A stretch of 64,000 bases of DNA from an uncultured Polyangiaceae bacterium (GTDB taxonomy: Bacteria > Desulfobacterota > Binatia > UTPRO1). A program made the translations under genes and the position numbers. The stretch covers positions 943 to 64,942 of the forward strand of contig CAZWAX010000001.1 of NCBI GenBank assembly GCA_964631985.1, in the 5' to 3' direction. How positions within the stretch are numbered: the stretch's first letter is position 1; each line of letters starts with the position of its first letter. The notes beneath the pieces are model-generated. The model had not been told where the DNA came from. It ran no database searches and worked only from the letters and a program-made list of their open reading frames with translations. Shown piece after piece: positions 1 to 42,729 of this stretch.

Positions 1-682
1 CGATCTCGTCGCCAAAGGCACGATGGCCGGTGCCCTGCATGGCAGCCTCTACGCCGGCCTCGGCCAGTACCTCCCCGACCGCAGCGGTGCGCTCGCGGTC
101 AGCAGCGCGACGCTCCGCGCCCGCGCGGCGACGGCCGGGCAAGAGGTCACGTTCACGTGCGTCCCGCCGGGATCCGGCGTTCGCATCGGGCTCGATCAGG
201 ACGGCGACGGCGCCGCCGACGGCGACGAGCGCGACGGGGGCACCGATCCGGCGAATCCCGCGAGCATCCCGCTCAATGCGCCCCCTCTCTGCAACACCAG
301 CACCGCGGTCGTCTTCAAGCGTGCCACGTTGACCGACAAGCGCGGCGTCCTCTCGCTGTCGAGCGAGATTCCGTTCGAGGTCTACAACCAGGAGAACGTG
401 ACCATTATCGTCGCCGACACCGACGGCGTGATCACCAGCGCGGGCGTGGCCGGCACGGAGGTCGAAACCAAAGGCTCGGCGTATCGCTACCGCGCGCCGC
501 GCGGCGCGATCGGCATCAAGAACATCATGCTGCGCGAGAAGCCGAGCGGCATCTTCAAGGTCACGCTGAAGACGATCGGGGCCTGGGCGATCGGGGCCGC
601 CAATCAGCCGCCGGCGTCGACGCAGATCACGCTCAACATCGGGGGCCAGTGCCTCCGGGGGAACGCGACCAAGGTCCACTGA
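1..682 (+). CDS. 3' portion of a hypothetical secreted protein; the 5' end lies outside the window
   Basis: Open frame runs from the window edge to TGA at 680-682. Gly/Thr/Ala-rich extracellular-like sequence with no recognisable catalytic motif. Confidence 0.4.
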   Translation, partial: DLVAKGTMAGALHGSLYAGLGQYLPDRSGALAVSSATLRARAATAGQEVTFTCVPPGSGVRIGLDQDGDGAADGDERDGGTDPANPASIPLNAPPLCNTSTAVVFKRATLTDKRGVLSLSSEIPFEVYNQENVTIIVADTDGVITSAGVAGTEVETKGSAYRYRAPRGAIGIKNIMLREKPSGIFKVTLKTIGAWAIGAANQPPASTQITLNIGGQCLRGNATKVH

Positions 683-735
683 GGGTCGAGGCACGGTGGG
701 GCGGCGCGACGACGCACCGCTCCGCCCTGCCCCTG

Positions 736-1752
736 CTACGGCAGCAGCACCACCTTGCCGACGTTTTCGCGCGCTTGCATGAAGGCGTGCGCCGCGGCCG
801 CCTCGGCGAGCGGAAAGGTCTTGGCGACGGTCGGCCGCACCTGGCCGTCGCGCGCGTAGTCGAGAACCTTGAGCAGGTAGCCGCGCAACCGCTCCATTTC
901 GTCCCACAGGTGTCCGAGGTTGAAGCCAAGGACGCCGTGGTTGTCGTTCATGAGACGGACGAAGCCGAAGCGCGGCATGCGGGCGAGCTGCCAGAGTGCC
1001 GGCAGAATGCGCCGGGAGGTCGAGGGCGCCATCGACGACACGCCGTAGGCGACCAGCCGGCCGAGCGGCGCCAGCGCCCGGTAGCTCTGGCGCAGGTTCT
1101 CGCCCCCGATCGGGTCGAGGATGACGTCGGCACCCTTCCCGCCGGTCACGCGCTTCGTCTCCGCCACGAAATCCTGCGTGCGATAGTCGATGGTGTGCGT
1201 CACCCCCGCCGCGCGGAGCGCCGCGTGTTTCGTGGCCGACGCGGTGCCGATGATCTCGGCACCATAGATGCGGCAGAGCTGGACCGCGGCGAGCCCGACG
1301 CCGCCGCCGGCGCCGTGGATGAGCACGCGATCGCCGCGCCGGACGTTCCCGAGCACCTCGAGCATGAGGATGGCGGTGAGATAGTTCACCGGGATCGCGG
1401 CGCCCTCCTCGACCCTCATCCCGGCCGGCAGGGGCACCACGTACGCTTGCGGCACGACGACGAGGTCGGCGTAGCCCTTGAAGCGCGTCGGCGCGATCAC
1501 CCGGTCGGCGGCGGCGACGCCGCTGACGCCGGCGCCCACCTCGTCGATCGTGCCCGCCACCTCGTAGCCGACGACGCACGGCAGCTTCGGCGCGTCCGGA
1601 TAGAGCCCCATGCGCGCCATGACGTCGGCGAAGTTCACCCCCGAGGCGGCGACACGAATCCGCACCTCGCCCGGTCCGGGGTGGGGGTCCGGCGTCTCGC
1701 GCAGCTCGAGCACCTCCGGCGGTCCGATACGGGGAATCCAGACTGATCGCAT
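736..1752 (-). CDS. NADPH:quinone oxidoreductase / zinc-type alcohol-dehydrogenase-like (MDR superfamily)
   Basis: ATG at 1752 preceded by GGAGGTGA. Protein MRSVWIPRIGPPEVLEL...GAGGGVG...KVVLLP has a Rossmann GxGGxVG and the MDR fold. The upstream part of the 624-aa track ORF is a spurious extension. Confidence 0.85.
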   Translation of the reverse strand: MRSVWIPRIGPPEVLELRETPDPHPGPGEVRIRVAASGVNFADVMARMGLYPDAPKLPCVVGYEVAGTIDEVGAGVSGVAAADRVIAPTRFKGYADLVVVPQAYVVPLPAGMRVEEGAAIPVNYLTAILMLEVLGNVRRGDRVLIHGAGGGVGLAAVQLCRIYGAEIIGTASATKHAALRAAGVTHTIDYRTQDFVAETKRVTGGKGADVILDPIGGENLRQSYRALAPLGRLVAYGVSSMAPSTSRRILPALWQLARMPRFGFVRLMNDNHGVLGFNLGHLWDEMERLRGYLLKVLDYARDGQVRPTVAKTFPLAEAAAAHAFMQARENVGKVVLLP

Positions 1753-23993: not shown

Positions 23994-24410
23994 TCAGGTC
24001 CCTTGCGGCTCGACGTCGAGCCACAGCAGCTTCATGTCCTTGGGAAGGACGCTGAAAACGTCCCAGGCTTCGCCCGTCAGACCGCCTGGGCTACCGAGCA
24101 GCACTCGCAGCGTCCGGAACACCGCTCGCACGGCACGATCGGCTTCCGCATCGTCGGGCAAAACTCCTCGCTTCCGCACCCTTTCGATGAACTCATGGGC
24201 GTGTATCTTCTGCGGGGTCCGCTCCGGTATCTCGCCCTCCCGCCATACGCGTTGCAGCGGTAGCGGCAACTGAGCGGCGAGATCGCGGGATTCCTCGGCG
24301 GTCAACCGATCACGCAGCTCCTGGAACACGACCAAGGTCAACGCTTCGGCCCGCTCGCGATCGCATGCGAGATCCGCCGCAACGCTCTCATAGAAGCGAC
24401 CGGTTTCCAT
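23994..24410 (-). CDS. DUF2267 domain protein
   Basis: METGRFYESVAADLACDRERAEALTLVVFQELRDRLTAEESRDLAAQLP matches the DUF2267 pattern. Confidence 0.7.
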   Translation of the reverse strand: METGRFYESVAADLACDRERAEALTLVVFQELRDRLTAEESRDLAAQLPLPLQRVWREGEIPERTPQKIHAHEFIERVRKRGVLPDDAEADRAVRAVFRTLRVLLGSPGGLTGEAWDVFSVLPKDMKLLWLDVEPQGT

Positions 24411-24616
24411 ACCAGCGGAAAGCAGCGATCGTGCCAGGCGGCGAACCGCGTAGCGAGCATTTCCCGTCGCGGCGATTCGCGGCCCTGAGAATCTCGAGGG
24501 GTTGTCTTCTCATTCGCAACAACACGGCTCGTGGCTGAGCTTGTCCCGAACCAGCCCGCGTTCTGCAGGATTTCCTCGACCTCCGGATCGTCGATCTCTG
24601 CGCGACCCGGAGGGAG

Positions 24617-24662
24617 GATCGAATCGGTTGCGAAAGTGGACGCGCTCGCAACCAATTCGAAC
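24617..24662. repeat. 17-bp imperfect inverted repeat (GATCGAATCGGTTGCGA / TCGCAACCAATTCGAAC, 15 of 17) with a 12-nt loop, at the proximal edge of the A/T-richer island
   Basis: Seen directly. Lies in the non-coding stretch upstream of the DUF2267 gene. Confidence 0.5.
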
Positions 24663-24714
24663 CGCCGCGCAGATTCCGCTTCACTTTTCGCTGCTTGAGA
24701 CGGGGCAGCCGTTT

Positions 24715-24882
24715 CCGTACCAAACCATCGCCGAGCGAGCCCTCCAGCTTCATCGGTTGGGGATGTCCGATAGCTCCATTGCTCGCTCGCTTGGTGTCAA
24801 CGACAAGACGGTCGCCAAGTCGATTCGTTGGATCATAGCGGTGCATACCGGTGCGCATTCAGAGACGCCAGAAGGGGCCTGA
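24715..24882 (+). pseudogene. Isolated HTH fragment resembling a transposase/resolvase N-terminal HTH (remnant)
   Basis: ...YQTIAERALQLHRLGMSDSSIARSLGVNDKTVAKSIRW then stop. It has the HTH_23/IS630-like shape but no catalytic domain follows. Confidence 0.35.
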
Positions 24883-24903
24883 CTTGCGTTAGGCTCCTCC
24901 GCG

Positions 24904-25657
24904 CTAACCGTGTCGGTATGTTTCGATACGAAGCCGCACAGAAACGAAATAAACTCCGGAAGGCGGGTCCAAATCCCGTCGGGGACGCTCGTCGCGTACA
25001 CGGAGACCCTTTCGTGCCATCCCGCCGCGCTGTCGCCGTCTGCGGTCCTCAGCGGCACGCCGACGCGCGGCACTTTCTTTGGTTGCTTGTGCCTCCCGCG
25101 GAAGCTCCCGAAGCATGATCTCGACAAATTTCTGATGCTCGAGGAATGCTCCTGCCGCGAACAATTCCAAGGGATCCGAGGTTTCAAGTGCCGCAGTCGC
25201 AACTGCGGCGACCTGGGCCGGTCGCCATACCGGCCCAAAGTCACCAAATTCAAAGCTCGCTTCCTGTTCCTTCCAGTAGTTCTCCAAGAAGGTCAGGTCT
25301 ACAGGAGGCGGCTGCCCCGACTCGGGCGTTCTCCCTGAATGGCTCAGGGGTTCGCGCTACGGTCGCCGCGCAGCGCTTGCACGCGAGGGTATGCCGGCGG
25401 ATCCGCGTGAACGCTTTGAGCTCTCCTGTCGGAACCCCGCGTTGTGCCTTCTTTGGTTGCATCGGTCCAAGCACGCGCTCCTGGAGAACAAAGTCACCCC
25501 CGAAAAGCGGGAGAGTGTTGCTGAGGTACACGTTAAGGATTCGCCAGGCGTCTCGTCGCCGACCTTGCTTGACTAGCGCTGCTTCCGCGTCGGCGATCGT
25601 CTGTCTCAGGTAGTCGTCCAGGCGTTGACGAGAAGGCCGCGAAGTAAGTTCACGCAT
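24904..25657 (-). pseudogene. Two overlapping same-strand ORFs in different frames (135 aa and 127 aa), possibly one frameshifted gene of unknown function
   Basis: ORFs 25250..25657 and 24904..25287 overlap by 38 nt in different frames. No recognisable domains. Confidence 0.25.
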
Positions 25658-26149
25658 CGAGTCGCTCCGACCGCGGGGTGTGGGGCATCTGCGACGGGCG
25701 ACTTCCCACCTTCGGGGAAGTCCCGAACTGCCGGAGTTTCCTAGAGAGCGGCCACGATAGAGCTGGAGAGCCTAGGACAAACGTGATGGCACCGGCTACG
25801 AGTGCGACGGTAGAAGTCAGACGTTCCCGATCGGGTCTCGGTCCATGGGGGCTTGCCAAGATACAAGGGTTTTTCGGGCACGATCTGGGCGGCGTACGCC
25901 TGTTAGGCGCCCCGCCAAGACCTAAGTATTCATGAGCATCGCCAGGTGTCCGACCCGCGGCCATTGCGATTCCGAAAGTCAGCATTTGACAGCTTTCGGT
26001 AGTGCTCGGTCGCCGGGTCGGTCATCCTGCGGGAAGGAGGCTAGGCCTTGTTGACCGGGGGCGTCAGGCCAGGCGCCACTCGTCACGAGTCCCGGGAGGA
26101 TGGGTCCGGCCCTAAGCAGAGGTCATCGGGTTCCACCCGTATTGCCGGC

Positions 26150-26203
26150 GGCTTCATGGGGGCTTCTCAAGTTTCCGGCTTCATGGGGGCTTTCCGGGAA
26201 ATG
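26150..26203 (+). repeat. Imperfect tandem duplication of a roughly 27-nt unit (GGCTTCATGGGGGCTT... twice)
   Basis: GGCTTCATGGGGGCTT occurs at 26150-26165 and 26177-26192. Non-coding context. Confidence 0.55.
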
Positions 26204-26320
26204 AGGGATTTCGGGCGTAACGGCGGTAACCGTAGTCGCCAAGGCCGGCGGGTCAATCGCAGCCGCGATCCTCGGGGTAAACGCCCTGGACAAACCGCCC
26301 GATAGACCCGTCGGAACAGG

Positions 26321-27084: not shown

Positions 27085-27474
27085 CTACCACCCGAACCTC
27101 CGAAAGCGCTCGGCCCGCCACTGCTGCACCTTCAGATCGAGCCAGTCGCCAAGGTCGACCATCGCGCGTAGACCCCCGTAGACGCATACGAGCGGCACGA
27201 CGACGAGCGCCAGGAACAGGCCACCCAGCTCACCGGCATGCGCGTGGGTGTAGCGCCCCGCGCGTACGAGGAGGGCCGCTACGCCTTGACCGGGCACCGT
27301 CTCCGTCAGGAAGTGCCACGCGTGAAACGGAAAGGTCACGATGATGAGCACCCAGAGGGCTGCGCCGACACGCTGCAACCAAATGGGAGGTGGCGGCTCG
27401 ATCGCCGCGCCGCACCGCTGGCACCGAACGTCGGCGAGGTACGCCCGCGACTGGCAATGACGGCACCGTTTCAT
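27085..27474 (-). CDS. Small zinc-ribbon membrane protein
   Basis: MKRCRHCQSRAYLADVRCQRCGAAIEPP (CxxC...CxxC zinc ribbon) followed by two predicted TM helices. Confidence 0.5.
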   Translation of the reverse strand: MKRCRHCQSRAYLADVRCQRCGAAIEPPPPIWLQRVGAALWVLIIVTFPFHAWHFLTETVPGQGVAALLVRAGRYTHAHAGELGGLFLALVVVPLVCVYGGLRAMVDLGDWLDLKVQQWRAERFRRFGW

Positions 27475-27872
27475 GGCAGACCCGACGTTAGCGCGCGCAT
27501 GCCCCAGGGGCGAGCCCGATGTCACGCGTTGTCGCGCCACGCTGCTGCGCCGTCCCCCTTATCGCTAAGTTTGGAGGACCTCTCGCATGCCTGTTCCTGC
27601 TTGCCGAAGCAATTGGCGCCGCCGAGCGGCCCCATCATCAGGTGCTCGGCAGCCTCAAAAATTCACCGAGGGCTATGCCGGTCCCTGCCAAGAGGTCATG
27701 AGCACGGATGCCCCACTCTCTCGTCACGCAAGGCGACGCGCTGCGATCGTCACCGGCATGCTCCTAGTAGACCTCACTTTCGACCGAGCACCGTCGTTGC
27801 CGTGCAGGCGACGCTTCAATCGAAGGCCTAGTCGCGGTCTGGTAGGCGGCGTCGCTGGAATCCATTGCTGCC

Positions 27873-29657
27873 TCAGATATCGGCGTAGCCACCCGAGTCT
27901 ATCCACGCTCGGTTCCATGCAATGCGCCATTTGCCTGAAATCTCGACCGTCGATGCCATGATGTCGGGCGACTTGATTCGACGATTGCGCTGCAGTTGAA
28001 CTGTACACACCAGTTGCGGACCCAGTCCGAAACTGCCGAGACGGCGTCTGCGAAAGTCGCGATTGAAGATGGCCACTCGCGCGTAACCGAGCGGTAGGTA
28101 GCGTGCGAGGCTAAAAAGCGGTTGTTCGGCACGAGCCGCACGCATGGCCGCCCTCACGATCCGCTGCCGGTTGGATTGGATCACCGTTGCTGCATTGGCC
28201 GAGTCGAGACCCTCAACGACGACTGCACCCGTCACGACACAGCCCCATGAATTGCGATGCATCTTGGCGTCGCGAGCCGCGATCGTGGCCCGGCCTAGCG
28301 TCTGACTCAGCTGCCTGCGCCCAATCTGCCAGTGCAAGCGAAAACTCTGTACAACCGTGTCGAGCATTCCGAACACCCGGGGCATTGAGGGCATTGGACG
28401 GTAGAAGAACCCGTTTTGTTCGAGAGCCATCGCGAAATCGGGAGCTCTCGTCCCACCGGACTCCCGCGCCTGCCTCAGGCGGCCACCATCGAACGCCGCC
28501 CAGCCTGGCCAGCCCTTTGAGGTCCGTAGGGAAAGGAAGTAGCGGTCAAAACCAGGGGCCAGGCTCTCAGCGAGAGCGGCAGACTGCACGGAAGCCCAAT
28601 GCACCTTGAGCACGTCCCGAGATTCCGGACGGGCGTACACGAGGAGTTGCCTCCCGCTTGATAGTTCGGACTCCAAGCAACCATCGATGGTCCACCACGG
28701 AGACCGGGACTCCTCCATCAATTCTTCGACGAGCAATTCGTGCGGCGTTCGATACCCGAACGAGCTAACAGTCAGCAGGAAGAGCTTCACGGCCGATGCG
28801 ATCGCGTTGCACGAATCAACCATGTCGTCGCAGAGTCGCACAACAGACCGCACATCTAGAGTCTCGGAGTTGCCCTTCTTGTCGCGATATCTGATTTCAG
28901 ACTGCAGGTACGTGATGCCCCCGTGGCCGATCCCGTTCCGAACCGTGTGGCGGTACGCGGAGACGCACGGAGCCAGCGGAGTATTTTTCAGCTCTTCGAC
29001 GACGTTGAATACGTCGAGGCCGTCAGCTTGCTTTCCGCGATCGAGCCTTGAGAAGTGCGCCATGGGCCGCAGAAGAGTCCCGAAGACCCCCTCCACGAGA
29101 CGCAGGTACGTCGGGTGCAGCACCCTATCGATAAGGCCCACTGTCTGGAAGTCGTCACTCTTCTCTAATGGCCGATCGTGCCACGCTTCTGAGTTGATCT
29201 GACGCAGGAAGAGCATTGCCGCGCTTACTTCCGTACCGGAATCAACGAAGTACTGCTGCAGGCCCTTCCGATCAGTAGCATCACGATGCTGTAGCCAGTC
29301 GAAGACGAGGGCATGTACCCGTCGGTCGAAGAATCGTTCGGGGCAATTGAGCAGATAGGGCCTCAGCGCGAGGCACGGTGCCGAGGGATATGACGCAAGA
29401 TGGGGGAACAGGCCCAGGAGACGGAACCGATCATCGGCGTCTTTGGCCGCGGTGAGCGGATTCTTTAGCGCTTCAGTCGTCAAGCGGGCGTTCGATGGAA
29501 AGCACTGCGAGTGCACTGGGCGACGAGACGTGGATCTCCAGCCCGAACCCCAGGGTAGGCAGCAACTGTGGCGAGGCGACGACATGACGTGCTTTCGAGC
29601 GGCCTGTCGGGAAGCTCGCTGCGTGATTTGCCGACAACTGTACGCGGCGCATGTCAA
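27873..29657 (-). CDS. Hypothetical 594-aa protein with a HEPN-like Rx4H motif (VRNGIGHGG); second gene of a coupled pair
   Basis: ATG overlaps the stop of the upstream gene (ATGA at 29654-29657). A/T-richer codon usage than the flanks. No other recognisable domain, no P-loop. Confidence 0.6.
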   Translation of the reverse strand: MTCAAYSCRQITQRASRQAARKHVMSSPRHSCCLPWGSGWRSTSRRPVHSQCFPSNARLTTEALKNPLTAAKDADDRFRLLGLFPHLASYPSAPCLALRPYLLNCPERFFDRRVHALVFDWLQHRDATDRKGLQQYFVDSGTEVSAAMLFLRQINSEAWHDRPLEKSDDFQTVGLIDRVLHPTYLRLVEGVFGTLLRPMAHFSRLDRGKQADGLDVFNVVEELKNTPLAPCVSAYRHTVRNGIGHGGITYLQSEIRYRDKKGNSETLDVRSVVRLCDDMVDSCNAIASAVKLFLLTVSSFGYRTPHELLVEELMEESRSPWWTIDGCLESELSSGRQLLVYARPESRDVLKVHWASVQSAALAESLAPGFDRYFLSLRTSKGWPGWAAFDGGRLRQARESGGTRAPDFAMALEQNGFFYRPMPSMPRVFGMLDTVVQSFRLHWQIGRRQLSQTLGRATIAARDAKMHRNSWGCVVTGAVVVEGLDSANAATVIQSNRQRIVRAAMRAARAEQPLFSLARYLPLGYARVAIFNRDFRRRRLGSFGLGPQLVCTVQLQRNRRIKSPDIMASTVEISGKWRIAWNRAWIDSGGYADI

Positions 29658-30649
29658 TCGCGCACAATCAAGCGAACGGATGGATCGAGCTTCTGAAGAG
29701 ATGCTTCGAGGTCTGCGTACATTGCCCTGACCTCGTCCTGGATGAGAATGGTGTTGCCGGGAGCGTCGGCGTACACGACGATGACTTTCGGCGCATATGG
29801 CCTTCCCTCGTCGCGCTCGAACGCTAGCATCTGCTCGAGAGCCCCAGGCAATCGCGTTGCGAGCGTCCGACGGTACCGCGGAAGGTCGCCCTCAAGAAAT
29901 TTGCCGATGAGAGCTGGCCGACTGGAAGCATCAACAAAGCCGAAAGCGTCGGAAGGCTCGATCTCGATGCGGAGTCTGTAGGATCCCTTGATGTCGCTAA
30001 AGTCGACGGTGGCCGATGTGCCTCCCGAGTTGAGGGCTTCTTCCACGTCAAGGAGAAGCAGCCTGACCGCGTTCGCACCTACCCAGTCGTTCTCGTCGAA
30101 GCGTCGTAGTTCGGGGGCTTCAGTGAGCACGCAGCAAGAACTGCAGAAAAGGGCCGGCTTCGTCACAGCGAGGATCTCAATGTTTTCTCGGATTACCTCA
30201 CTGGCGTCTTGATGGGCGCTCAGGGACTTTACCTCGGCGAGTCCGATTCCTTGCGGCGCCTCAATCTGAAAGTCTGGTCTCTTCCTCTTTTTCTGAGGGG
30301 GAAGGGCAATAGCACTCGAGATTCCGATCTCGTCGCGTAGATGTCTGACGGCGCGGACCTCTGCCAACCACGTACGAATTCGAGCGTCGAACTCGCGCCC
30401 TTGATCGGCGGTCAGGTCAGCAACCAACTCATCCCAGTTCCGGACAAGCTGCGAGGCGGCATCGAGGTTCGCTTCCAGCACGTCCACGCCTACGAACCCG
30501 AGCAGAAGCCTGCGAACAAGTAGATTTCGCAGTGGCGGTACGTTGGAGTCGGTGATTCGTTGCTTCAATGCGTGGCCGATGGTGGACTGAGCGATGGAGC
30601 CGAGCATCGCATGGACGCGAACGGAAAGTTCTTCGGGCGTCATCTCCAA
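29654..30649 (-). CDS. Hypothetical 331-aa protein with a possible PD-(D/E)xK-like motif (RPDFQIE...GLAEVK); first gene of a coupled pair
   Basis: ORF directly abuts the PrimPol remnant. Basic KKRKR patch then PD...EVK spacing typical of restriction-endonuclease-like folds. This rests on motifs only. Confidence 0.55.
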   Translation of the reverse strand: MEMTPEELSVRVHAMLGSIAQSTIGHALKQRITDSNVPPLRNLLVRRLLLGFVGVDVLEANLDAASQLVRNWDELVADLTADQGREFDARIRTWLAEVRAVRHLRDEIGISSAIALPPQKKRKRPDFQIEAPQGIGLAEVKSLSAHQDASEVIRENIEILAVTKPALFCSSCCVLTEAPELRRFDENDWVGANAVRLLLLDVEEALNSGGTSATVDFSDIKGSYRLRIEIEPSDAFGFVDASSRPALIGKFLEGDLPRYRRTLATRLPGALEQMLAFERDEGRPYAPKVIVVYADAPGNTILIQDEVRAMYADLEASLQKLDPSVRLIVRD

Positions 30650-31283
30650 CCAGTAGTAGTCGGAGCTGCGGCGCCTTGTCGATCGAGTTGATTCGCGAGC
30701 GCCGCCATCGGCTCGTCGAGGGCCGAGGCTGCTGCGCCTTCACGCTCGACGGCGACGAAGCACGGTCGAGGACATCGGGGGCCCACATCGACAACGTCGA
30801 TCCGGGTGTAAGGTAGGCGGTATGCGGGGGCTCGCGGTGATCGCTGGCCTCGGGCTTGGTCGGCTGTCGTATACGGCACGCTATTGGCCCTGATCGCGGA
30901 ACCAAGGGCGAGGCGCACGGGTGCCGACCGCCGCCGCCGGTCGCGACGGTGAATGTCGCGGGCAACGTCCCGTGCTCGGGCTCGAAGGCAGCGAGGCTCG
31001 CGTCACCGCCGTGAGGCGGGTCCACGTCGAGGACGAGGAACCCCTAGGTCGTGCCGGTCGAGGTGCCGATGCTCGCGTGCGGCCACTCCGCCCACCAGCC
31101 GCGAATCGTGGCGGCATTGGTGGCGGCCTTCGCCGGCCAGCCCTTGAGCCTGGGGTGCTTGCCGGCGTCCGCGCAAACCTGGCCCTTCCGGCAGCTGCAG
31201 GTGCCTGCCTCGGTGATCTCGCAGACCGGCAAGACGCGCCAACCGCGGGCGGCGTAGCCGAGTGCAACCTCCAACAGCTCCAT
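30650..31283 (-). pseudogene. Bifunctional DNA primase/polymerase (PrimPol, N-terminal domain) gene disrupted by an in-frame TAG and downstream frame loss
   Basis: MELLEVALGYAARGWRVLPVCE...KHPRLKGWPAKAATNAATIRGWWAEWPHASIGTSTGTT-TAG(31044-31046)-GFLVLDVDPPHGGDASLAAFEPEHGTLPATFTVATGGGGRH matches the PrimPol N-domain consensus. Only about 125 codons are recognisable. Confidence 0.55.
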
Positions 31284-31672: not shown

Positions 31673-33034
31673 ATGAGCAGACGCACGCCGGGTGAACAGA
31701 TCGGGCCGTGGACCGTCGTCCGGGATATCGGACAAGGTGGCAACGGTGAAGTCTTCGAAGCGACCGCCGGGGACGGTGGCCGAGTCGCGCTGAAAGTCTT
31801 GAAGGCGATCAATCCAGCTGGGGAACCCTACGGCAGATTCTGCGATGAAGTAGCGATCATGACAAAGGTCGGACCGCACCCCGGGGTGCTCCCGCTCTTG
31901 GCTTCCTCGGTCCCACTTGAGCCCTCGCGAAAGAATCCGCCATGGCTTGCGACCCCAATCGCGGTTGCCATCCGTGACGCCATGACCGACCAGCCGGTCG
32001 AGGTGGTCGTGGAGGCAATCGCTAACGTCGCCGAGACGCTTGCCGATCTTCAAGCGAAGTTCGAGGCGTTCCATCGCGATATCAAGCCGCCGAATCTGTT
32101 CTCGTACGATGGCCGTTGGGTTGTTGGCGATTTTGGTCTGGCAGATTTTCCCCTGAACGCAGGGTTGACCCCGCAGAATCAGAAACTCGGGCCGGTGTTC
32201 TTCATCGCGCCCGAAATGTTGAGGGATGGCTCAGCTCCCAGCCCCACCGCGGATGTGTACTCGCTGGCCAAAACTCTTTGGGTACTAGCTACGGGGCAAA
32301 CCTACCCTCCTCAGGGCGAGCAGCGGATAGATGTCCCCGCGATGACCCTAGCCCACTTTATCGCTCACCCACGGGTGCGTACCCTGGACCGATTGGTCGA
32401 GCGCGCGACCCGGCACGATCCGACTGCGCGACCCTCAATGTCGGAGTTCGCGAGGGAGCTACGCGAATGGCTGAATCCAGTCGGGGCTGTTCCGTCACCG
32501 GGTGACGTGAGCCACCTTCGCGCGCGCTTCGAGGCTGCCGTTGAACCTGCGCGGCGCACCGCGGCCAGCGTTGAGGATTTGCAGGTGCAGGCAATGGAGA
32601 CCTTCAAAGAGATGCGCGTGGCAATGGCGCCTCTCTTGCGAACGGTCCAACAGGTTGTGCCAGCCGCATCGATGGATCCGCGGGACACGATAATTCTCGA
32701 GATTTGCGGGTACATCACTCCACTCAGCGAGCCGAAATTCATTTCGGCGAAGCATCTGACAATCATCGCCAGGCCGATTCCAGGCGATTCTTTCGCGCCC
32801 GTGTTGCGATGTGGCTTTGCACTGCAGCTGCGTCCCGACGGCAAGATGCACATTGGTGGTTCGGTTCTCGTTGGCGGACAAACCAAAGCCGATCAGCAAT
32901 GGAAGGGAATGTTTCGGGAGATGGTGTCAGTAGGGTCGCCGCGAGAACCCAACGCAGCAATGGAATGTGTGGCCGCGGTGCAAGCGGAGCTTCCGAGAGC
33001 CCTGGAAGCCCTTGTCCAAGCGTTGGAAAGGTAG
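31673..33034 (+). CDS. Hanks-type Ser/Thr protein kinase with an uncharacterised roughly 170-aa C-terminal domain
   Basis: GQGGNGEVFEA (Gly loop), VALKVLK (VAIK), HRDIKPPNL (catalytic loop), VGDFGLADF (DFG), APE. The C-terminal part has no recognisable motif. Confidence 0.8.
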   Translation: MSRRTPGEQIGPWTVVRDIGQGGNGEVFEATAGDGGRVALKVLKAINPAGEPYGRFCDEVAIMTKVGPHPGVLPLLASSVPLEPSRKNPPWLATPIAVAIRDAMTDQPVEVVVEAIANVAETLADLQAKFEAFHRDIKPPNLFSYDGRWVVGDFGLADFPLNAGLTPQNQKLGPVFFIAPEMLRDGSAPSPTADVYSLAKTLWVLATGQTYPPQGEQRIDVPAMTLAHFIAHPRVRTLDRLVERATRHDPTARPSMSEFARELREWLNPVGAVPSPGDVSHLRARFEAAVEPARRTAASVEDLQVQAMETFKEMRVAMAPLLRTVQQVVPAASMDPRDTIILEICGYITPLSEPKFISAKHLTIIARPIPGDSFAPVLRCGFALQLRPDGKMHIGGSVLVGGQTKADQQWKGMFREMVSVGSPREPNAAMECVAAVQAELPRALEALVQALER

Positions 33035-33197: not shown

Positions 33198-34913
33198 CTA
33201 GGCGGAACGTTGCATCGCGGCACTGAAAATAACGGCGAAGATCTCCACGTCACCGTCGCAGCGGAACACCTGATCCTTGCCCGTGTCCTTCTCTACGACG
33301 ATGCCGTCGTCGTACCGCGTCGCGTTGATGACCTTCGAGTACGGAATGTTCGTCGTCTTCCGTGACCCGTCGAGGATCAGCCTCTTGCTGGTCACGTAGA
33401 GGGTGCCTTGGTCGATCTCGTGGAGGACGTCCTCTGTGACGCGGTTCACCGTCGCAGAGCCCACGCGGTAGGCGACGCCCTTCATGATCGGCACGCGCAC
33501 AGTCGGCCCCGCGTAGCGGACCGCGCGCGTGCGCGTTCGGAGTTCGTGGTGGACTGCGGGGATCGTCGCGTGGCATTGCTCGCCGCGCTGAAGCCGGATC
33601 GAAGGCGTGATCAGGGGCAGCTCGCCGTTCTCGATCCGCCACAGGAGGCGGAAGCGGTCCAGCGTGGCCGCCGTGGCGTTGTCGTGGGTCAGCGTCACGT
33701 TCAACTGCCGGGCGAGCGCTGAGAGTTGCGCGTCTTCGTCGGGTGACAGTCGGCGGTCGCTGGTCGCGTTGTCTAGGACTCTCTGAAACAGCGGACCGAT
33801 CGACTCCGCTCGAATCGCGTTCGCGAGCTGGTCGGACATTCGGAGCTTCGTGGCGAGGTCGATCAGGCGCGTCTGTTCGGCCTCGGTCAGTTCGCGGTCG
33901 TCCGCGGCCGCGGCGAAATGATGCTCGTAGATCGGCCGCGTGACGGCTTCGTGCGCGCCGCGCACGTCGTTGTCGTCGAGCCCGAGGAGGCCCTGCAGGT
34001 GGCGAAGGTCGGCGACCTCGTCGTCCGACAGCGCATCATCGCGGACGGCGTGTCGCAGCACGGTCGCGTAGACCTCGCAGCCCTCCGCGCGGAAGTCCTG
34101 CGGCCGGATGCGGTACTGACGCAGGACGTCGCTGACCACTTCCTCGGTGATGTCCGGGATCGCCGTCGTCGCGAGCAGGTTGCCGATCTCTACTACGGCG
34201 TTCGCGCGCGGGCGTCGTCGGAACAGTCGTGCGAAGAACCCGACCTTGCGGAGGGGTGTGAGCGAGAAGCCGTTCAGCCCCGTCGCGGCAGGGGGTGTCG
34301 GCGGCGGTGTGGCGATCGCCTTTGGGCGAGAAGGCGGCGCGTCCTGCGGCTGCGGGTCGTGCGACGGAGAGTCCGCAGCGGGCGGCTGCTGGGGCGGCTG
34401 ATCCAACAAGGCCGCGGCCGTGCGGTAGGCCAGCGTTTTGGTGCTGCCGAGCTGAACGCTGCCGCCGTCGCGCTGTCCGAAGCTGTGGAGGCCGCCGGCG
34501 TAGTTCGCCTCGTGGTAGCGCATGGACGCGACGACCTTTGGGTTGCTGCACATGGCCTCGGCGATGGCGCCGACCTGTGCCTCCGGCAAGCCGCTGTCAT
34601 TAGGATCGTTCCACACGCGCCCGTTTCGATGCCGGTGGACCTGATGGACGAAGTACGTCGCCATGAGGACCTCGTTCCCCGGCATCGCGAGCGTGCCTTC
34701 GACCCGCGCGAACACCTCGCGAGAAGGTCTGTCCGCAGAGTCGACGCCAAGCCGGGTAGCCCACCGCTCCAGCCAGGCGGGTGGCGGGTACTTCGCGCGC
34801 AGTGCTTTGCTGATGAGCGTCGACATCTCGGACATCGAGATGTCGTCCGAGAAACTGATGCCGAGGTCACGGGCGTAGCTTCTTTGTCGTTCTGAGGCCG
34901 ATTCTAGCGACAT
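33198..34913 (-). CDS. Hypothetical protein with a Pro-rich linker, TerB-like repeats and a C-terminal bacterial PH-like domain
   Basis: ATG at 34913; the longer track ORF uses TTG. Repeats ...LSDDEVADLRHLQGLLGLDDNDVR... and ...ELTEAEQTRLIDLATKLRMSDQLANAIRAES are TerB/DjlA-N-like. C-terminal YVTSKRLILDGSRKTTNIPYSKVINATRYDDGIVVEKDTGKDQVFRCDGDVEIFAVIFSAAM looks bPH/GRAM-like. Confidence 0.5.
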   Translation of the reverse strand: MSLESASERQRSYARDLGISFSDDISMSEMSTLISKALRAKYPPPAWLERWATRLGVDSADRPSREVFARVEGTLAMPGNEVLMATYFVHQVHRHRNGRVWNDPNDSGLPEAQVGAIAEAMCSNPKVVASMRYHEANYAGGLHSFGQRDGGSVQLGSTKTLAYRTAAALLDQPPQQPPAADSPSHDPQPQDAPPSRPKAIATPPPTPPAATGLNGFSLTPLRKVGFFARLFRRRPRANAVVEIGNLLATTAIPDITEEVVSDVLRQYRIRPQDFRAEGCEVYATVLRHAVRDDALSDDEVADLRHLQGLLGLDDNDVRGAHEAVTRPIYEHHFAAAADDRELTEAEQTRLIDLATKLRMSDQLANAIRAESIGPLFQRVLDNATSDRRLSPDEDAQLSALARQLNVTLTHDNATAATLDRFRLLWRIENGELPLITPSIRLQRGEQCHATIPAVHHELRTRTRAVRYAGPTVRVPIMKGVAYRVGSATVNRVTEDVLHEIDQGTLYVTSKRLILDGSRKTTNIPYSKVINATRYDDGIVVEKDTGKDQVFRCDGDVEIFAVIFSAAMQRSA

Positions 34914-35036
34914 GTTGCGTGCTCCCACCACACCGTGCGGCGCACGGTCAAGGCCCACCAGCGGCGACGACGCTGCCGGTTGCAAGGCGCCCCGGTCGGG
35001 CCTACACGCGCGGCACCACGAACGAAGGAGGACTTC

Positions 35037-35700: not shown

Positions 35701-36699
35701 CTACCCCTTCTTCGTGATCCGAAGATAGCGGTCGAACACGGGGTCTCCTTCCTGAAGCACGGTGGGGGTCTTCGGCACTGCCTCAACCGGCAGATCCCAA
35801 ACGGCCTCACGGGCCTGGTCTTCGACGTGTATCGAGGCCGAGAAGAACAGGTGGCCGCTACTACCACTCGAGTACGCGCGCTCCATCGCCCGGCGCAGCA
35901 TCGAGAAGTCGATCTCGACACTGAACGGAAAGGCGTTCCTCAGAAGCGATACTGGCACCCGTACGCGAAGCCATTGCAGCCGCGCCGGACGCAACACAAA
36001 CCGCCGCAGGCGATGATGGCCGGCGAGGCGCGCAAAGTCGTTCTCCACGACCGTGCGAAGATAGCCGGCGAGAGGTTGCCCGGCGATTAGGTGCGCCGCG
36101 ATGCTGCACATCGCACTCGTGTACGCAGCCTGGTCCTCAGATGTCAGACTGAGCCTCTGGCGGTTCGTAGTAACCGTCATCGTACCGTTGTTGCTCATCA
36201 CCAAGCCGCCATTGTGGACTACCGCGCCCCGGTAGGGTGCGAAAACACGATAGAGTTCCCAGAAAGCGTGGCTTAAGTCGGGCCACGCCGAGAAGAGCGG
36301 AGGCTCCATCAGCGATCCGCGGTTGCGCAGATCGTTGTAGGCGTCCCGCTTGTCGCTAAAGCGCCACGGCGCTTCGCCGTTGGCGCGAAGAATCCACTCG
36401 ACGGTCAGGTCCTGAAGCTTGAAGGCGGTGCTGAACGCGAGCGGCCGGAAGCGTTCGAGCGCGTTGCGAACGGCGCCTGCTGAAAAGCTTTCCTCGAGTT
36501 GAAGAACAAGGTCTCCCCGAAACTCGCCCGACGTGTTCACGTCCCCAAGCGTGATAGTCATGCCTCCATCCGCCGCCTCGCTTTGCCGCCACAATGTCGC
36601 TCGCAGAAATTCAAGCGCATCGCGCTCGTAGGCAACCGAGTCTTCGAGATCGCTTGGGTTTCCAGTGAACCTGCTGGGGTGTGGCGGTATGCCACCCAT
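35701..36699 (-). CDS. Hypothetical 332-aa protein; last gene of the STAND-linked operon
   Basis: ATG overlaps the upstream stop (TGATG at 36697-36701). No recognisable domains. Confidence 0.55.
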   Translation of the reverse strand: MGGIPPHPSRFTGNPSDLEDSVAYERDALEFLRATLWRQSEAADGGMTITLGDVNTSGEFRGDLVLQLEESFSAGAVRNALERFRPLAFSTAFKLQDLTVEWILRANGEAPWRFSDKRDAYNDLRNRGSLMEPPLFSAWPDLSHAFWELYRVFAPYRGAVVHNGGLVMSNNGTMTVTTNRQRLSLTSEDQAAYTSAMCSIAAHLIAGQPLAGYLRTVVENDFARLAGHHRLRRFVLRPARLQWLRVRVPVSLLRNAFPFSVEIDFSMLRRAMERAYSSGSSGHLFFSASIHVEDQAREAVWDLPVEAVPKTPTVLQEGDPVFDRYLRITKKG

Positions 36700-37946
36700 C
36701 ACTCGTTGCCAGACGCCAACCAGCCGGATCTGAACCGTCTGGTGAAGCGAATATCGAACATGCGCTCCATCTGCCGCAGCCAAGGACCCTGGAGCGGGTG
36801 AAGATAGTCCCTCGGTTCCATCAGCGCCCCGACAGGTGCGAAGGCATATGTGAAGTCGCGCCAGGCGTCGGTCAGCTGCGGGCCCGCAGGCGCCCCCCCG
36901 CGCGGAAGCGTCTCGTCGCCAGGGGAGAAGGCGTACTCGAAGGGTTCGCACCAGGACGCTTCAAGGTAGCGCTCTCCCGTCACATAGTCGTCGGGCGAGG
37001 CGATAACCTTCTGGCGCATCTCCCGCGCCGCCGCTGAAAACTCACCCACGACATTGCTGTAGATGTTGGCGAGATCCTGGTGGTCCTTGCCATAGAGGGC
37101 GATGACCCTCTCCAGGGCGTGGACGGCATCCTTCGCGAAGTAGTCTCCGAAGAGGTTGAGATTCTCCTCGACACTCGTCCACGAGCCTTCGACGGCGCGT
37201 TCCATCGCGGCGAGCAACTCCCCAGGCTTCTTTTCCAGCATGCTGCCCATCATTGTGGCGAACGTGTCGTCGTGCGTCCGATCCGGCGCGGGCAAGTTCG
37301 GATTGCTAAGGCAGAGCTGGATGAAGATGTTGAAGAGTGTCGCCAGCCGGAAGCGCTCGGCCGCTCTGACGCGCGCAAGAAGTATCCGGAGACAGTTGAG
37401 CGGCGTCCCGTACCGAGGGTCTCGCGCGAAGTCTGCGACCAACAGATCGAAGGCCCGACCCTTCAGATCTCGCAACGCGATTGTGAGCTGCATGAGGGTA
37501 GCCGATGCTTCGAAGACGAAACGGGCGGCCCTGGAATACCACAGGTACTGGCGTTCGAACCCGTTGTGCAGATCGAGCATCTCCTGGGTTACGCCAATCG
37601 TCTCTGTCCCAAGGGGAAGCGGCAGATGTCGCCCCCGATTGCGGCCGAGCCTTTTGGCGAGCAGCAGCGTGATCGCGCTTCGTCCGAGGGCCGAGCCGAA
37701 GAGGTGATTTCCGACGGGGGTCAGAAGAACGTCGTGAAAGTGGCGTCGTTCATGGACCCTGGTCGTCATCCGGTGCGCCAGATCGGCCTGTTCCGCGTCG
37801 GAAAGATGCGCCGCCGCGGCGAACGTTTCCGCGGGTGGTTGTCCGGTGGCAAGGAGTAGATCGACGTCCTCCGACGCCTTCCGGTTCAACAACACTGCGA
37901 GCGAGGGGACGTGAAGAAGGCCGTAGCGCTTGTTGCAGAAGTCCAA
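36699..37946 (-). CDS. Hypothetical 415-aa alpha-helical protein; third gene of the STAND-linked operon
   Basis: Long ORF whose only in-frame start near the 5' end is TTG at 37946, 15 nt after the upstream stop. The start is uncertain and no domain is recognised. Confidence 0.5.
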   Translation of the reverse strand: MDFCNKRYGLLHVPSLAVLLNRKASEDVDLLLATGQPPAETFAAAAHLSDAEQADLAHRMTTRVHERRHFHDVLLTPVGNHLFGSALGRSAITLLLAKRLGRNRGRHLPLPLGTETIGVTQEMLDLHNGFERQYLWYSRAARFVFEASATLMQLTIALRDLKGRAFDLLVADFARDPRYGTPLNCLRILLARVRAAERFRLATLFNIFIQLCLSNPNLPAPDRTHDDTFATMMGSMLEKKPGELLAAMERAVEGSWTSVEENLNLFGDYFAKDAVHALERVIALYGKDHQDLANIYSNVVGEFSAAAREMRQKVIASPDDYVTGERYLEASWCEPFEYAFSPGDETLPRGGAPAGPQLTDAWRDFTYAFAPVGALMEPRDYLHPLQGPWLRQMERMFDIRFTRRFRSGWLASGNE

Positions 37947-38388: not shown

Positions 38389-41300
38389 TCAAAGACTCCC
38401 AGCGTCAGGATCGGGCGTCATGATAGGCCACGGTCGACCGGAGGCAAGATCGGGATGGCGCGGCCCGGCTTCCGGTGAGCCGTACTCATCCCAGATCCGG
38501 TCTACTTGGTTCAGGCAACGCGCGGCTGCGTCCAACGCCCCACCGTCTGTCGTCAGTGCAAGAAGTTTCTCGCGAAGTTCAACGGCAGGGACGGGAACAA
38601 TCGTGAACGCCCCCTTCAAATTCTCGGAAGGTACATGCTGGGTGACCACGCGCCCGATCGCCCGCCGCGAGATGAGAGAGCGCCAACCTCCCTCAAAGCT
38701 GAGTAGAAGTAGTACGCCTTCGGCATCGGGATTCTCCACGACGGCCTCGGCGAGCATTGCTAGGCCCGGCGTTGATGCGCCGTTGCTGAGGAACCCATAG
38801 ACGTGGGCACGCAGCGCAGGATGTGCGTCGAATAACTCGCCGATGTGGCCGGCCATGTGCCAGCGATCGAGGTTCCCGTCCGCAAAGGAACCGCCTGCAG
38901 CCAAGTCCACAAAGCGGCGCGCGGCGGAGAGGGTTCTCCGGCGCGTGACGGCGTCGCGCCACACGTGACTGTCATAGAAGGCGGGACAGGCTTCAGCAAA
39001 AGCAAAGAGCGCGTTTTCAGCGTCAACACCAGGTGCTTCGCCGAAGGCACGGATCATTTCCTCCAAACGATCGGGCCTTCGTTGCTCCTCCGGCAGGGTC
39101 TGAACAACAGTGAGCGCCTCAGCTGGAAAATTCGTGAACGGCAGTAGTCGCAGCCATTCACTGACTTCGTAGCCATCACTCAGGATCCAGCTTTGGGTTC
39201 TGCCAGCCTCCATGACCTCAGCGAGGCCTGTCTTCACGACGCCGATGTCGACGATGTGACCGGACAGCACTTGGTTCAGAAGTAGTGCGGCCCGTAAGCG
39301 GCGTGGTGCGATGGCGATCAGACTTTGAACCGTCGCATCACGCTGGCCATGCGGCAGCCGCGATGCCACGACGCCAAGCGCGAGGCCGAGCTTTTTCCGC
39401 TCTTCCGGCACGCCGTCGGCGATCAGTGGCTCAAGCGCTGCGAAGATTGTCTCCGCTTCCACCGAAGTCGCTGAAGGATTGGCGGCGCGAGCGGCTCTTT
39501 TCTCTTCCACGCGTGAGAAATCCGGACCGCCGAAAACCCGCCTGCTGTTCGGCGGATCGTTCGCCTTCTGCCATCTGGCCGCGAGGACGTGCGCGGCAGC
39601 TTCGCCGAAATGGTCGTCGATAAGATACTCTCGCATCAAAGCGGCTGTCTCCGGAGCGTCGATGGACAGGAACGCGTGCTGGTACTCATTCGTATGCGGT
39701 GTGATGGCTTCGGTCGCGGCTTCGCTGTGGGCTCGCCCACCGGCTGCTTGCGCTTCGGCACGGAAGGCGCGATAGTGGCGGAGGTTGTCGTCCAGCAAGC
39801 GCCTCAACAATGGCAGCAGCGCGATAGAGGGGGCCTGGCTTGCTAGCGTTGCGATGCTAGCCGTCTGCCAGCGCTTCGCGGTACCGGAAGCCAGCATGCG
39901 GTCGCCCCACTCCTGGGCGATTGCCTGAATAGTCGCACGTGAATCAGCGTCGAACGGTCTGCCGTGATCGCCCTCCCCACTTGGATGACGCGAGAGAAGC
40001 CCTGCCAAGCGCGCCATTTGGTCGTTATCGGCTTGCAGAGAGCGGGCATGGATGGCGGCAACGAGACTGGCGCCGCGGGCATGCGCGAGCCGACGCAAAA
40101 GGGTGTGGTAGCGGTCACTTGCGGCTTGGTCGTATGTACCGTCCACATTCAGCCGCGCCCGTGCTTCGTTCAGTGCCTCGATCATGCGGCCGACGGCCAA
40201 CGGTCCGAGCGCGGAAGCCGCGGCTTCTCCGCGGTCATGCGGCCGGGTGGCGTCCATCAGCGCAAGTTCCAGTAGTGCGTCGTCTTCGAGACTGAAACAG
40301 GCTGCAGCGAGAATATCATCGGCTCCGTAGAATAAGGTTCGCCCGGTGCGCACGCGGGTGAGGAGGCCGCTCGCGACAGCACGGGGATAACGCTGGCGCG
40401 CTTCGTAGACGAGATGAACCGCCGCGTCCCGCCCCTCGGTTTCCATCGACCCGATGAAGTCGGCCAGCTCTAAAGCCCGGTCTTCGGCAAAATCCGAGTA
40501 CACGATCGAGTGAAGCCGGTCGTAATCCGAAACTCCTGTCGCGATCTCCCGCTCGCGCGCAGCGGCGAGGCGCTCCTTGACGCGCTCGTCGGGAACGTTG
40601 TGGACGAACCTGTTGCGCGCAACCAGGTCGATGGTCTCGTCGCCAGCGTACCGCAGCACGTCGGCGACGTGTCGATCCGCGCCCCGAAAAGCCAGCGCCT
40701 CAACCGTCGAGACTTGAACTTCAGTCGCGGGATCATCGCTTGCGATAGCGGTCGCGAGATCGAGACCGTCGATGCCGCTGTTGGATGCCATCTCGTGCAG
40801 CAGGACGGTCCGCACCTTGGCCGACAGCCCACAGATCCTCGTCACGGCATCACTCCCGAGGATTGACGGTCGGAACCGGCTGCAGTTGCGCAGCGCCTTG
40901 AGACTCGTCTGATCGTCCTCGTGCGTGATGAGCGGCCAGACCGCGTCAAGGAACTCAGGGCGTCCCGACGCGAGCATAAAACGCAATGCGCGATCCACCT
41001 TGCCCGGCGTATGCCAGCGAGCGACGAGCCCCCGGATTGTTGGGGCGATGGGCGCCCACACTTCCTCCGTCGCCCTGAAGATCATCTCGGCCGCGAGAAT
41101 GGGATCGACTTCGAACGCCGAGAGAATGGCCTTGCCGCACACGGCCTGCTGGTGCGCATCGCTGCGCGCCATACGTTCCACCGCGAAGAGAATGGCTTCT
41201 TCCCATATGGGAAGGTTGAATACTTCAGCCTTCAGCGCCTCGCGGCTCCTCGGATCATCGGCCGCCGCGGTAGTCCGGCGCTCTACGGAGTGAGAGGCAT

Positions 41301-42729
41301 ACCACTCCTGAAACTGCTGGTGCTGGAAAGAGTAGCCCAGCGTGCCGCCCGTGCGGATCAGAACATGATTGCTGGCGAGCACGTCCAGCACGTCGTCCGG
41401 CTGGGACGGGATAGTGATCTGCCCGTCCCCGATCAGCGTTGCCTGGGTTTGAGAGACGGTCCGCCGGGCGTTCGTGTCGGCGATAGACGTGTTCTGTGTC
41501 CGCGTGGCGAACACGGCGAGACACTCCAGATGATCCTGCTGGAAACCATGCACAACGTCGCGCAGCGTCTCGGCGCGACGGGCATCAGTTTCGTGCACAG
41601 TCACGAAGTGCCGCAGGAGTTCCTCCTTGGTCGTTGGGAAGGGCGCGCCTTCAGGAAGGGAGAGCAGTGCGGTGAGATAGAGTGGGATCGTTACGAGCTC
41701 GCGGACACCAGGCGTGCGCCAAGCCTGATCGACGATCCTCAGGCCTGCTTCGCCGCGCATCGCGGCGGCGATCTGCGTTTGCTGCTTTTGGTTGAGCGGC
41801 AGGAGATCGACGCGCATCCCGACGAAAGGAACGTCGAGGGCGTGCTTGCGGGTCGAGACGATGAAGCCGAGCTCAGGTAGCTCCGCCATCAGGCGATCGA
41901 CCTGTACGCGCGCTCGCGTCCGCCCGTCCGGACTCAATTCGTTCCAGCCGTCGAGCAGCAGGACAACACCGGGTTTGGCGGCGACTGCACGGAAGTCGTC
42001 TTCCGATATGGCCTGGAACCCCTGACGAGTGAGGATGGACCCTAGCAGTGACAACGTTTGCGTGGCCCAATCGGCGAGCGGGATGATGATGGGCGTGCCT
42101 CCGGCGTCGGCGATGAGGGCTTGGGCGATCTGGAATAGTGTCGTCGTCTTTCCTGTGCCGGGTCCGGCGACGAGGATTAGATCGTCGAGCGACGTGACGA
42201 CGCGCGCGAGCGCGGTTGTCGTCGCAGGCTGACCAAAGCCTTCTACCTCCAGCGTGAGCGCTACGGCACTGGATGGCCATTTGGTTGTGCGGCGGAAAAC
42301 AGAGAGATCCGCCTCAGCAGCGGCGCGAAGACGATCCGCCGGTTGCCCGACGGCAATAGGCAGAGGCCCACGGGACGCTTCGTTCTGCAACACGCGGCGT
42401 CGAGCGTCGTCTTCCGCTAGCTTCTTCCATTCGCGTAGACGCTCGATGGTGAATTCTGGATCCTTATCGTCGATAGCCTTGCCGTGATTGCGACACATCC
42501 AGATGCCGTTGCTTGCGGAACGGCGTTCCGCGGATGACATGTTTGCGTCACCGCGGGGGCTGCGGTCGGATTCCACGGCGCCGATGATGTGCGCCGCCGT
42601 GCCGAGATTGATTTCACCGCCGACGGTCAGCGCACGACAAGATGGATAGGAGCAAAGCCAGCCCGCGCGCTTAGCGATCTGGGTCTTTATCCGGTCTGTG
42701 AACTCGTCTCTGTTTCTGTTTCCTGGCAT
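38389..42729 (-). CDS. STAND-class NTPase: N-terminal HNH-like nuclease motif, NACHT NTPase module and long C-terminal HEAT/ARM-like repeats (antiviral-STAND/Avs-like architecture)
   Basis: HNH-like segment: C-x2-C (CSYPSC)...AAHII...N-x4-C-x2-H (NGIWMCRNH). Walker A: LILVAGPGTGKTTTL. NACHT-type Walker B: VVLLLDGWNEL. Roughly 900 aa of helical repeats follow. Confidence 0.8.
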   Translation of the reverse strand: MPGNRNRDEFTDRIKTQIAKRAGWLCSYPSCRALTVGGEINLGTAAHIIGAVESDRSPRGDANMSSAERRSASNGIWMCRNHGKAIDDKDPEFTIERLREWKKLAEDDARRRVLQNEASRGPLPIAVGQPADRLRAAAEADLSVFRRTTKWPSSAVALTLEVEGFGQPATTTALARVVTSLDDLILVAGPGTGKTTTLFQIAQALIADAGGTPIIIPLADWATQTLSLLGSILTRQGFQAISEDDFRAVAAKPGVVLLLDGWNELSPDGRTRARVQVDRLMAELPELGFIVSTRKHALDVPFVGMRVDLLPLNQKQQTQIAAAMRGEAGLRIVDQAWRTPGVRELVTIPLYLTALLSLPEGAPFPTTKEELLRHFVTVHETDARRAETLRDVVHGFQQDHLECLAVFATRTQNTSIADTNARRTVSQTQATLIGDGQITIPSQPDDVLDVLASNHVLIRTGGTLGYSFQHQQFQEWYASHSVERRTTAAADDPRSREALKAEVFNLPIWEEAILFAVERMARSDAHQQAVCGKAILSAFEVDPILAAEMIFRATEEVWAPIAPTIRGLVARWHTPGKVDRALRFMLASGRPEFLDAVWPLITHEDDQTSLKALRNCSRFRPSILGSDAVTRICGLSAKVRTVLLHEMASNSGIDGLDLATAIASDDPATEVQVSTVEALAFRGADRHVADVLRYAGDETIDLVARNRFVHNVPDERVKERLAAAREREIATGVSDYDRLHSIVYSDFAEDRALELADFIGSMETEGRDAAVHLVYEARQRYPRAVASGLLTRVRTGRTLFYGADDILAAACFSLEDDALLELALMDATRPHDRGEAAASALGPLAVGRMIEALNEARARLNVDGTYDQAASDRYHTLLRRLAHARGASLVAAIHARSLQADNDQMARLAGLLSRHPSGEGDHGRPFDADSRATIQAIAQEWGDRMLASGTAKRWQTASIATLASQAPSIALLPLLRRLLDDNLRHYRAFRAEAQAAGGRAHSEAATEAITPHTNEYQHAFLSIDAPETAALMREYLIDDHFGEAAAHVLAARWQKANDPPNSRRVFGGPDFSRVEEKRAARAANPSATSVEAETIFAALEPLIADGVPEERKKLGLALGVVASRLPHGQRDATVQSLIAIAPRRLRAALLLNQVLSGHIVDIGVVKTGLAEVMEAGRTQSWILSDGYEVSEWLRLLPFTNFPAEALTVVQTLPEEQRRPDRLEEMIRAFGEAPGVDAENALFAFAEACPAFYDSHVWRDAVTRRRTLSAARRFVDLAAGGSFADGNLDRWHMAGHIGELFDAHPALRAHVYGFLSNGASTPGLAMLAEAVVENPDAEGVLLLLSFEGGWRSLISRRAIGRVVTQHVPSENLKGAFTIVPVPAVELREKLLALTTDGGALDAAARCLNQVDRIWDEYGSPEAGPRHPDLASGRPWPIMTPDPDAGSL

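Follow-up and report, generated by a model that had tools for sequence, protein, structure and literature searches.

Two neighbouring open reading frames (ORFs) on the minus strand of a 64,000-nucleotide stretch of contig CAZWAX010000001.1, from an uncultured Polyangiaceae bacterium (the whole stretch is called the window below), are probably independent single-gene nucleases that lie side by side in a defence island of lowered G+C content (GC), together with remnants of mobile elements. ORF1 (29654..30649) codes for 331 amino acid residues (aa) and starts at TTG 30649, or alternatively at ATG 30643. ORF2 runs in the same direction. Its longest reading (27873-29657) gives 594 residues, by which the protein is numbered here, and the likely protein, judged from the N-termini of homologues, begins with the TTG of L59 and has about 536 residues (27873..29483). 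An earlier note on this DNA had described the genes as an orphan pair of low GC with nuclease-like motifs, translationally coupled by an ATGA overlap and adjoining a decayed PrimPol gene, and had interpreted them as a two-gene toxin or abortive-infection (Abi) module. The observations are partly confirmed and the interpretation is partly supported. Both ORFs, of 331 and 594 residues, are present and co-directional, and their GC is indeed lowered (58.2% for ORF1 and 59.9% for ORF2, against a mean of 65% over the whole window and 69% over the first 23 kb). The two peptide strings were located as well, KKRKRPDFQIE...GLAEVK at residues 120-141 of ORF1 and VRNGIGHGG at residues 239-247 of ORF2. It is important to note that the lowered GC is not confined to the ORF pair and amounts to about 63% throughout 24-64 kb.

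The AlphaFold2 (AF2) model of ORF1 has a predicted local distance difference test (pLDDT) score of 87 and a predicted template modelling (pTM) score of 0.83. Its core, residues 84-177 (30119..30400, minus strand), has the alpha-beta-beta-beta-alpha-beta arrangement of the PD-(D/E)xK fold: helix 84-108, which carries D88 and E97, is followed by three strands, a helix and a strand. The core is preceded by an N-terminal helical domain (1-80) and followed by a C-terminal alpha/beta extension (180-331). The catalytic-type motif (30227..30292, minus strand) consists of KKRKRP125-D126-F, 12 residues, and L-A-E139-V-K141. The pair P125-D126 stands directly before strand 127-131, E139-V-K141 lies within strand 134-143, and E97 is located in helix 84-108. 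P-D and E-V-K are kept in 10 of the 10 family members that cover the motif region, each of which has PDF, then 10-13 residues, then (L/F)-x-E-V-K; D88 and E97 are invariant in the family alignment. The PD-(D/E)xK-like character that had been read from one short string is therefore upheld by the modelled fold and by the conserved set of catalytic-type residues, E...PD...ExK.

The ORF1 family is very rare. Among 5.8 billion proteins, a word-indexed search returned ORF1 itself as the sole match, and exhaustive phmmer over 1.84 billion cluster representatives, combined with a profile search, gave about 12 relatives with 20-41% identity to the protein of the window, including seven of full length (325-363 aa). 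ORF1 matches no family in Pfam, PADLOC, NCBIfam or PHROGs. The GC at its three codon positions (0.66/0.42/0.66) is even along the whole length, a pattern typical of a genuine gene. The nearest comparisons are the PD-(D/E)xK domains of the CdiA-CT toxins (4g6u, 4zqu, 5j4a), HamA, Shedu SduA and Can2/Card1, to which the identity is 7-20%. Unlike the CdiA-CT, HamA and Can2/Card1 systems, however, ORF1 has no CdiI-like immunity gene, no HamB helicase partner and no CARF domain. From fold and motif we infer that ORF1 most likely acts by itself, as a metal-dependent nuclease.

Homologues of ORF2 form 203 clusters, of which the best 120 are 46-79% identical to it and nearly all about 540 residues long. 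With one genome scanned per species (185,579 species), 65 loci of the family were located in more than 15 phyla plus archaea. They include Nitrospirota, Chloroflexota, Planctomycetota, Gemmatimonadota, Acidobacteriota, Verrucomicrobiota, Bacteroidota, Campylobacterota, Desulfobacterota, Alphaproteobacteria, Actinomycetota, Synergistota, candidate phyla and archaea such as Methanosphaerula. The term orphan, applied earlier to both genes, thus suits ORF1 with its dozen relatives and does not suit ORF2.

The AF2 model of ORF2 (pLDDT 83.8, pTM 0.82) contains a four-helix up-and-down bundle, the HEPN fold, in its N-terminal domain. This domain comprises residues ~112-296 (28770..29324, minus strand) and has a beta-hairpin (248-268) inserted after the motif helix and before the last one. 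HEPN domains carry Rx4-6H at the C-terminus of helix 3, the R being followed immediately by a polar N, D or H (PMC3710099). Further hallmarks of the superfamily are an acidic residue conserved in helix 2 near this motif, a composite active site formed on dimerisation, and RNase activity independent of metal. In ORF2 the corresponding residues R240-N241-G-I-G-H245 (28923..28940, minus strand) are found at the C-terminal end of helix 237-244. Across 52 aligned sequences of the family, reaching down to 26% identity, R is present in all 52 and N and H are present in 51; the lone exception is a decayed copy (L050). Residues G246, E189, D277, D281 and C283 are conserved as strongly as the motif, and E189, a candidate for the acidic residue of helix 2, is invariant in the long helix 169-206 that precedes the motif helix. 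The bundle and the near-invariant RNxxxH bear out the HEPN-like assignment, and the positions on which the two nuclease readings turned, D, E and K in ORF1 and R and H in ORF2, are kept in the homologues. Profile libraries gave little: ORF2 has no match in Pfam, PADLOC (E<=1), NCBIfam or PHROGs, and a Pfam scan of 30 homologues yielded a single match, HEPN_AbiU2 in one member (E=0.032). One family member carries the UniRef label 'Apea-like HEPN domain-containing protein', which could not be reproduced by scans with hidden Markov models (HMMs).

The remainder of ORF2 is a highly conserved C-terminal alpha/beta region, residues ~300-590 (27888..28760, minus strand), with 16 strands in the AF2 model. 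Its invariant residues are rich in arginine and aromatics and include WW321-322, R372-Y373, R462, D534-x-R536-x-R538 and W581-N582. No solved structural counterpart was found for this region of ~290 residues, which yields weak ferredoxin-like matches. The fragment R462...H467 was considered as a second HEPN Rx4H motif and rejected: it is part of beta strands, and several members have F in place of H467.

The minus-strand junction between the two genes reads cgcgaTTGAcatg. The overlap would be TTGA and not ATGA, it would require TTG 29657 as the start of ORF2, and the ATG nearest to the junction (29652) is out of frame with ORF2. The start at TTG 29657 is itself doubtful on several grounds. Residues 1-56, the N-terminal extension that it creates, are missing from all aligned homologues, are predicted to be disordered (pLDDT <50) and have an inverted, atypical codon-position GC, and other starts are indicated both by public gene calls, at M25 (ATG 29585, 570 aa) or V48 (GTG 29516, 547 aa), and by the homologues, whose N-termini line up with TTG L59 (29483). 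Beyond this extension the alignment of ORF2 with its homologues spans the full length. The spurious extension falls in the spacer that separates the stop codon of ORF1 from the likely start of ORF2 (29484..29653, minus strand). Since the supported starts place 69-171 nt between the ORF1 stop and ORF2, the translational coupling proposed earlier is unsupported. A scan of the spacer for sigma-70-like promoters and for terminators, itself uninformative, detected neither.

It is also important to compare the settings in which the two families occur. A profile of the ORF1 family matched none of the ORFs at about 60 ORF2-homologue loci, and ORF2 homologues were found at 0 of the 5 ORF1-homologue loci, so that the adjacency seen in the window is conserved at none of them. 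The ORF1 homologues are solitary genes that follow sucD or birA, or are neighbours of a methylase/HEPN/MNT cluster. The neighbours of the ORF2 homologues vary by locus (a BrnT toxin-antitoxin pair; a glyoxalase; an island with SSB, RadC, methylase and helicase; a type IIG-like methylase; an integrase with an insertion sequence), and those of the closest relatives, 72-75% identical, are also different from the ones in the window. When 446 flanking proteins from about 55 ORF2 loci were clustered all against all, no family reached more than three loci, and these were syntenic Chloroflexota. No conserved small ORF was found beside the ORF2 homologues, no tandem or flanking repeats were found around ORF1 and ORF2 in the window, and no Rfam RNA was matched in the window, where an RNA antitoxin had been sought. 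The earlier note had also considered that the genes might reside in PrimPol-helicase replicon modules. However, the two PrimPol fragments of the window matched no homologue locus in tblastn, a test of low sensitivity, and because of this a replication role is not indicated. Adjacency together with nuclease motifs did not signal an operon in this case.

Two local arrangements were seen among the homologue loci. At L007 a protein of 258 residues (375-1151, plus strand) is encoded 9 nt upstream of the ORF1 homologue. Nothing in the window corresponds to it, and it could serve as a partner only in that ORF1 sub-lineage. At L003 and L004 duplicated pairs of small genes (96 aa and 123 aa, with a 4-nt overlap) are located just upstream of the ORF2 homologue and are not conserved at the other loci; they may represent a toxin-antitoxin-like cassette.

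The functionally characterised single-protein HEPN defence enzymes are ApeA, DARNA/PD-T7-3 and HepS, all of which cleave tRNA in the anticodon loop once they are allosterically activated. ApeA assembles into decamers and is switched on by deoxydinucleotides, DARNA/PD-T7-3 combines an HEPN domain at the N-terminus with a C-terminal sensor of single-stranded DNA (ssDNA), and HepS is a tetramer that a phage tail-tip protein opens. ORF2 has the same domain order as DARNA, with HEPN at the N-terminus. However, the C-terminal domain of DARNA is all-helical, Pds5-like and ssDNA-binding, while that of ORF2 is alpha/beta, the chain lengths are 456 and about 540 residues, and no PADLOC model, DARNA/PD-T7-3 included, matches ORF2 at E<=1. 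ApeA is likewise a stand-alone HEPN protein of similar size, the nearest solved HEPN domain being HepT, and it is regulated through a conserved non-catalytic pocket. Its order is reversed relative to ORF2, with HEPN at the C-terminus (335-583 in Ec2ApeA) behind helical N-terminal and Mid domains, and neither HEPN_Apea (PF18739) nor the PADLOC ApeA model matched ORF2 or 30 of its homologues (E<=1-10).

HepT/DUF86 structures (PDB 7ae2, 8xdj, 5yep) show 8-12% sequence identity to ORF2. HepT has only ~130-140 residues and needs an adjacent MNT antitoxin, by which it is AMPylated, whereas ORF2 carries the extra C-terminal region and no neighbour is conserved among its homologues; the neighbour families that recur at the scanned loci do not include NTP_transf_2, and ORF2 cannot be placed in the HEPN-MNT systems. 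One further family, 'HEPN-T (Cpin_6617)' of Anantharaman et al. 2013, was compared by description only. It is fused to a ferredoxin-domain dyad and occurs in Bacteroidetes and Nitrospirae, which recalls the presence of the ORF2 family in Nitrospira and Bacteroidota and the weak ferredoxin-like matches of its C-terminal region. However, HEPN-T is listed as not conserving Rx4-6H, and this motif is essentially invariant in the ORF2 family. By analogy, the mode of action of ORF2 is most plausibly that of ApeA, DARNA or HepS, but neither its sequence nor its architecture makes it a member of any of them.

This analogy allows us to propose how ORF2 would most likely act. The protein would dimerise or oligomerise through the HEPN domain and be kept inactive until the non-HEPN region senses a cue derived from infection and so switches it on; the activated protein would then cut RNA, probably tRNA anticodon loops, and so abort the infection. 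Going further, we suggest tentatively that the ORF2 family might be an unrecognised class of HEPN abortive-infection proteins with a new sensor, and ORF1 a rare stand-alone PD-(D/E)xK defence nuclease. The C-terminal region of ORF2 could in that case sense, for example, a nucleotide or a nucleic-acid-derived ligand and gate the N-terminal RNase. The novelty is in the single-protein HEPN effector architecture of the ORF2 family, whose C-terminal domain is unmatched, and in the ORF1 family with its great rarity. If the ORF2 family is an immune RNase, it would be a fourth self-contained HEPN sensor-effector architecture besides ApeA, DARNA and HepS, and a useful target for discovering a new activation signal. 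Most members of the family come from uncultured environmental phyla and some from archaea, groups in which little of the defence repertoire has been charted.

Several observations weigh against two independent defence nucleases. The 124 nearest neighbours of the ORF2 homologues that were scanned include DNA methylases, type IIG restriction-modification (R-M) enzymes, integrases, transposases, HicB and AbiEii-type ATPases, none of which dominates, and defence and mobile genes are a minority among them. Several homologue loci lie amid ordinary metabolic genes, plasmid and phage collections yielded no ORF2 relatives, and neither family is linked to phage defence by a defence-specific HMM, PADLOC, NCBIfam and PHROGs being without a match. 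The sensor role of the C-terminal region is drawn purely by analogy, and this region could instead bind the substrate or be a second enzyme. In addition, ORF1 and ORF2 may be co-transcribed in this genome.

The metabolic surroundings of some loci and the unmatched defence libraries would suit an ORF2 family of cellular RNA-processing or stress RNases, or of interbacterial toxins, in which the C-terminal region, with its invariant arginine and aromatic residues, binds RNA or selects the substrate. We consider such a function unlikely. The limited number of loci, scattered over unrelated phyla, argues against a housekeeping role, and no secretion, immunity-gene or polymorphic-toxin context and no conserved partner were seen at the loci. 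Moreover, decayed copies of the family are frequent (L070-L074, L068, L069, L050, L077). They take the form of C-terminal remnants of 46-98 aa, HEPN-only truncations, an internal-deletion relic and a truncation adjacent to an insertion-sequence transposase, which indicates rapid turnover. This pseudogenisation and the mobile-element and R-M neighbours fit conflict systems.

Decay is seen in the window itself, and it speaks for the possibility that ORF1 and ORF2 are inert leftover cargo of a degraded integrated element, without current function in the host. The decayed PrimPol gene noticed earlier is indeed present directly upstream of ORF1, as a frameshifted and truncated remnant (30890..31283, minus strand) that matches Pfam PF09250 in two frames: profile positions 1-54 are found in the ORF 31044-31283 and positions 64-107 in an ORF of another frame, 30429-31025. 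The remnant ends after about 107 profile positions, the helicase part is gone, and it marks a decayed mobile element beside ORF1. The gene-poor stretch at 24.4-26.3 kb, the lower GC and the common decay of ORF2-family copies elsewhere point in the same direction. However, both ORFs have their full length and keep all the residues that are invariant in their families, the codon-position GC of ORF1 is normal throughout, and ORF2 keeps its end-to-end alignment with the homologues. Cargo of a mobile element is also compatible with a defence function, which is the usual situation. We give little credence to inert cargo.

The co-evolved and translationally coupled two-gene toxin/Abi module (DNase and RNase, or toxin and regulator) is highly improbable: adjacency, shared direction, similarly low GC, the nuclease-like character of both products and a possible co-transcription across a spacer in which no terminator was found speak for it, but it is largely refuted because the two families do not co-occur, and the TTGA junction with its spurious extension, the real spacer, the other neighbours of the closest ORF2 relatives and the disparity between about 12 ORF1-family members and more than 200 ORF2 clusters stand against it in addition.

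The reading of two independent nucleases in a defence island is consistent with the surrounding genes. Taken together, the phyletic patchiness, the neighbours, the decayed copies and the features of the window suggest horizontally moving conflict or defence genes. Divergently oriented relative to the PrimPol remnant is a gene for a Ser/Thr protein kinase of 453 residues (31673-33034, plus strand), which strongly resembles the PADLOC kinases PD-T4-6 and MADS mad6 (E 1e-28 to 1e-26). It is followed by a protein of 595 residues (33198-34985, minus strand) with weak similarity to PADLOC PDC-S48 (E 2e-10) and a Tic110/ARM-like helical repeat match. Further along, a STAND NTPase of 1446 residues (38389-42729, minus strand) consists of an endonuclease effector N-terminus, NACHT and a C-terminal NCAB2; the N-terminal ~110 residues match PADLOC PDC-M68A, CBASS 'Effector' and SAVED-HNH types, and from its sequence the protein looks like an Avs-like antiviral STAND nuclease. 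The STAND gene is flanked by three ORFs of 416, 415 and 701 residues (35701-37946 and 43324-45429, minus strand) which have no match in Pfam, PADLOC or PHROG and are possibly further cargo of the island.

On the other side of the pair, downstream of ORF2, an ORF of 151 residues (27085-27540) shows CxxC...CxxC, which is zinc-ribbon-like, and hydrophobic stretches, as judged by eye from the translation. The gene-poor stretch (24400-26300, GC ~61%) contains short overlapping ORFs only and may be more decayed element sequence. Within it, CGGCTTCATGGGGGCTT is found twice, at 26149 and at 26176, as a perfect direct repeat of 17 nt.

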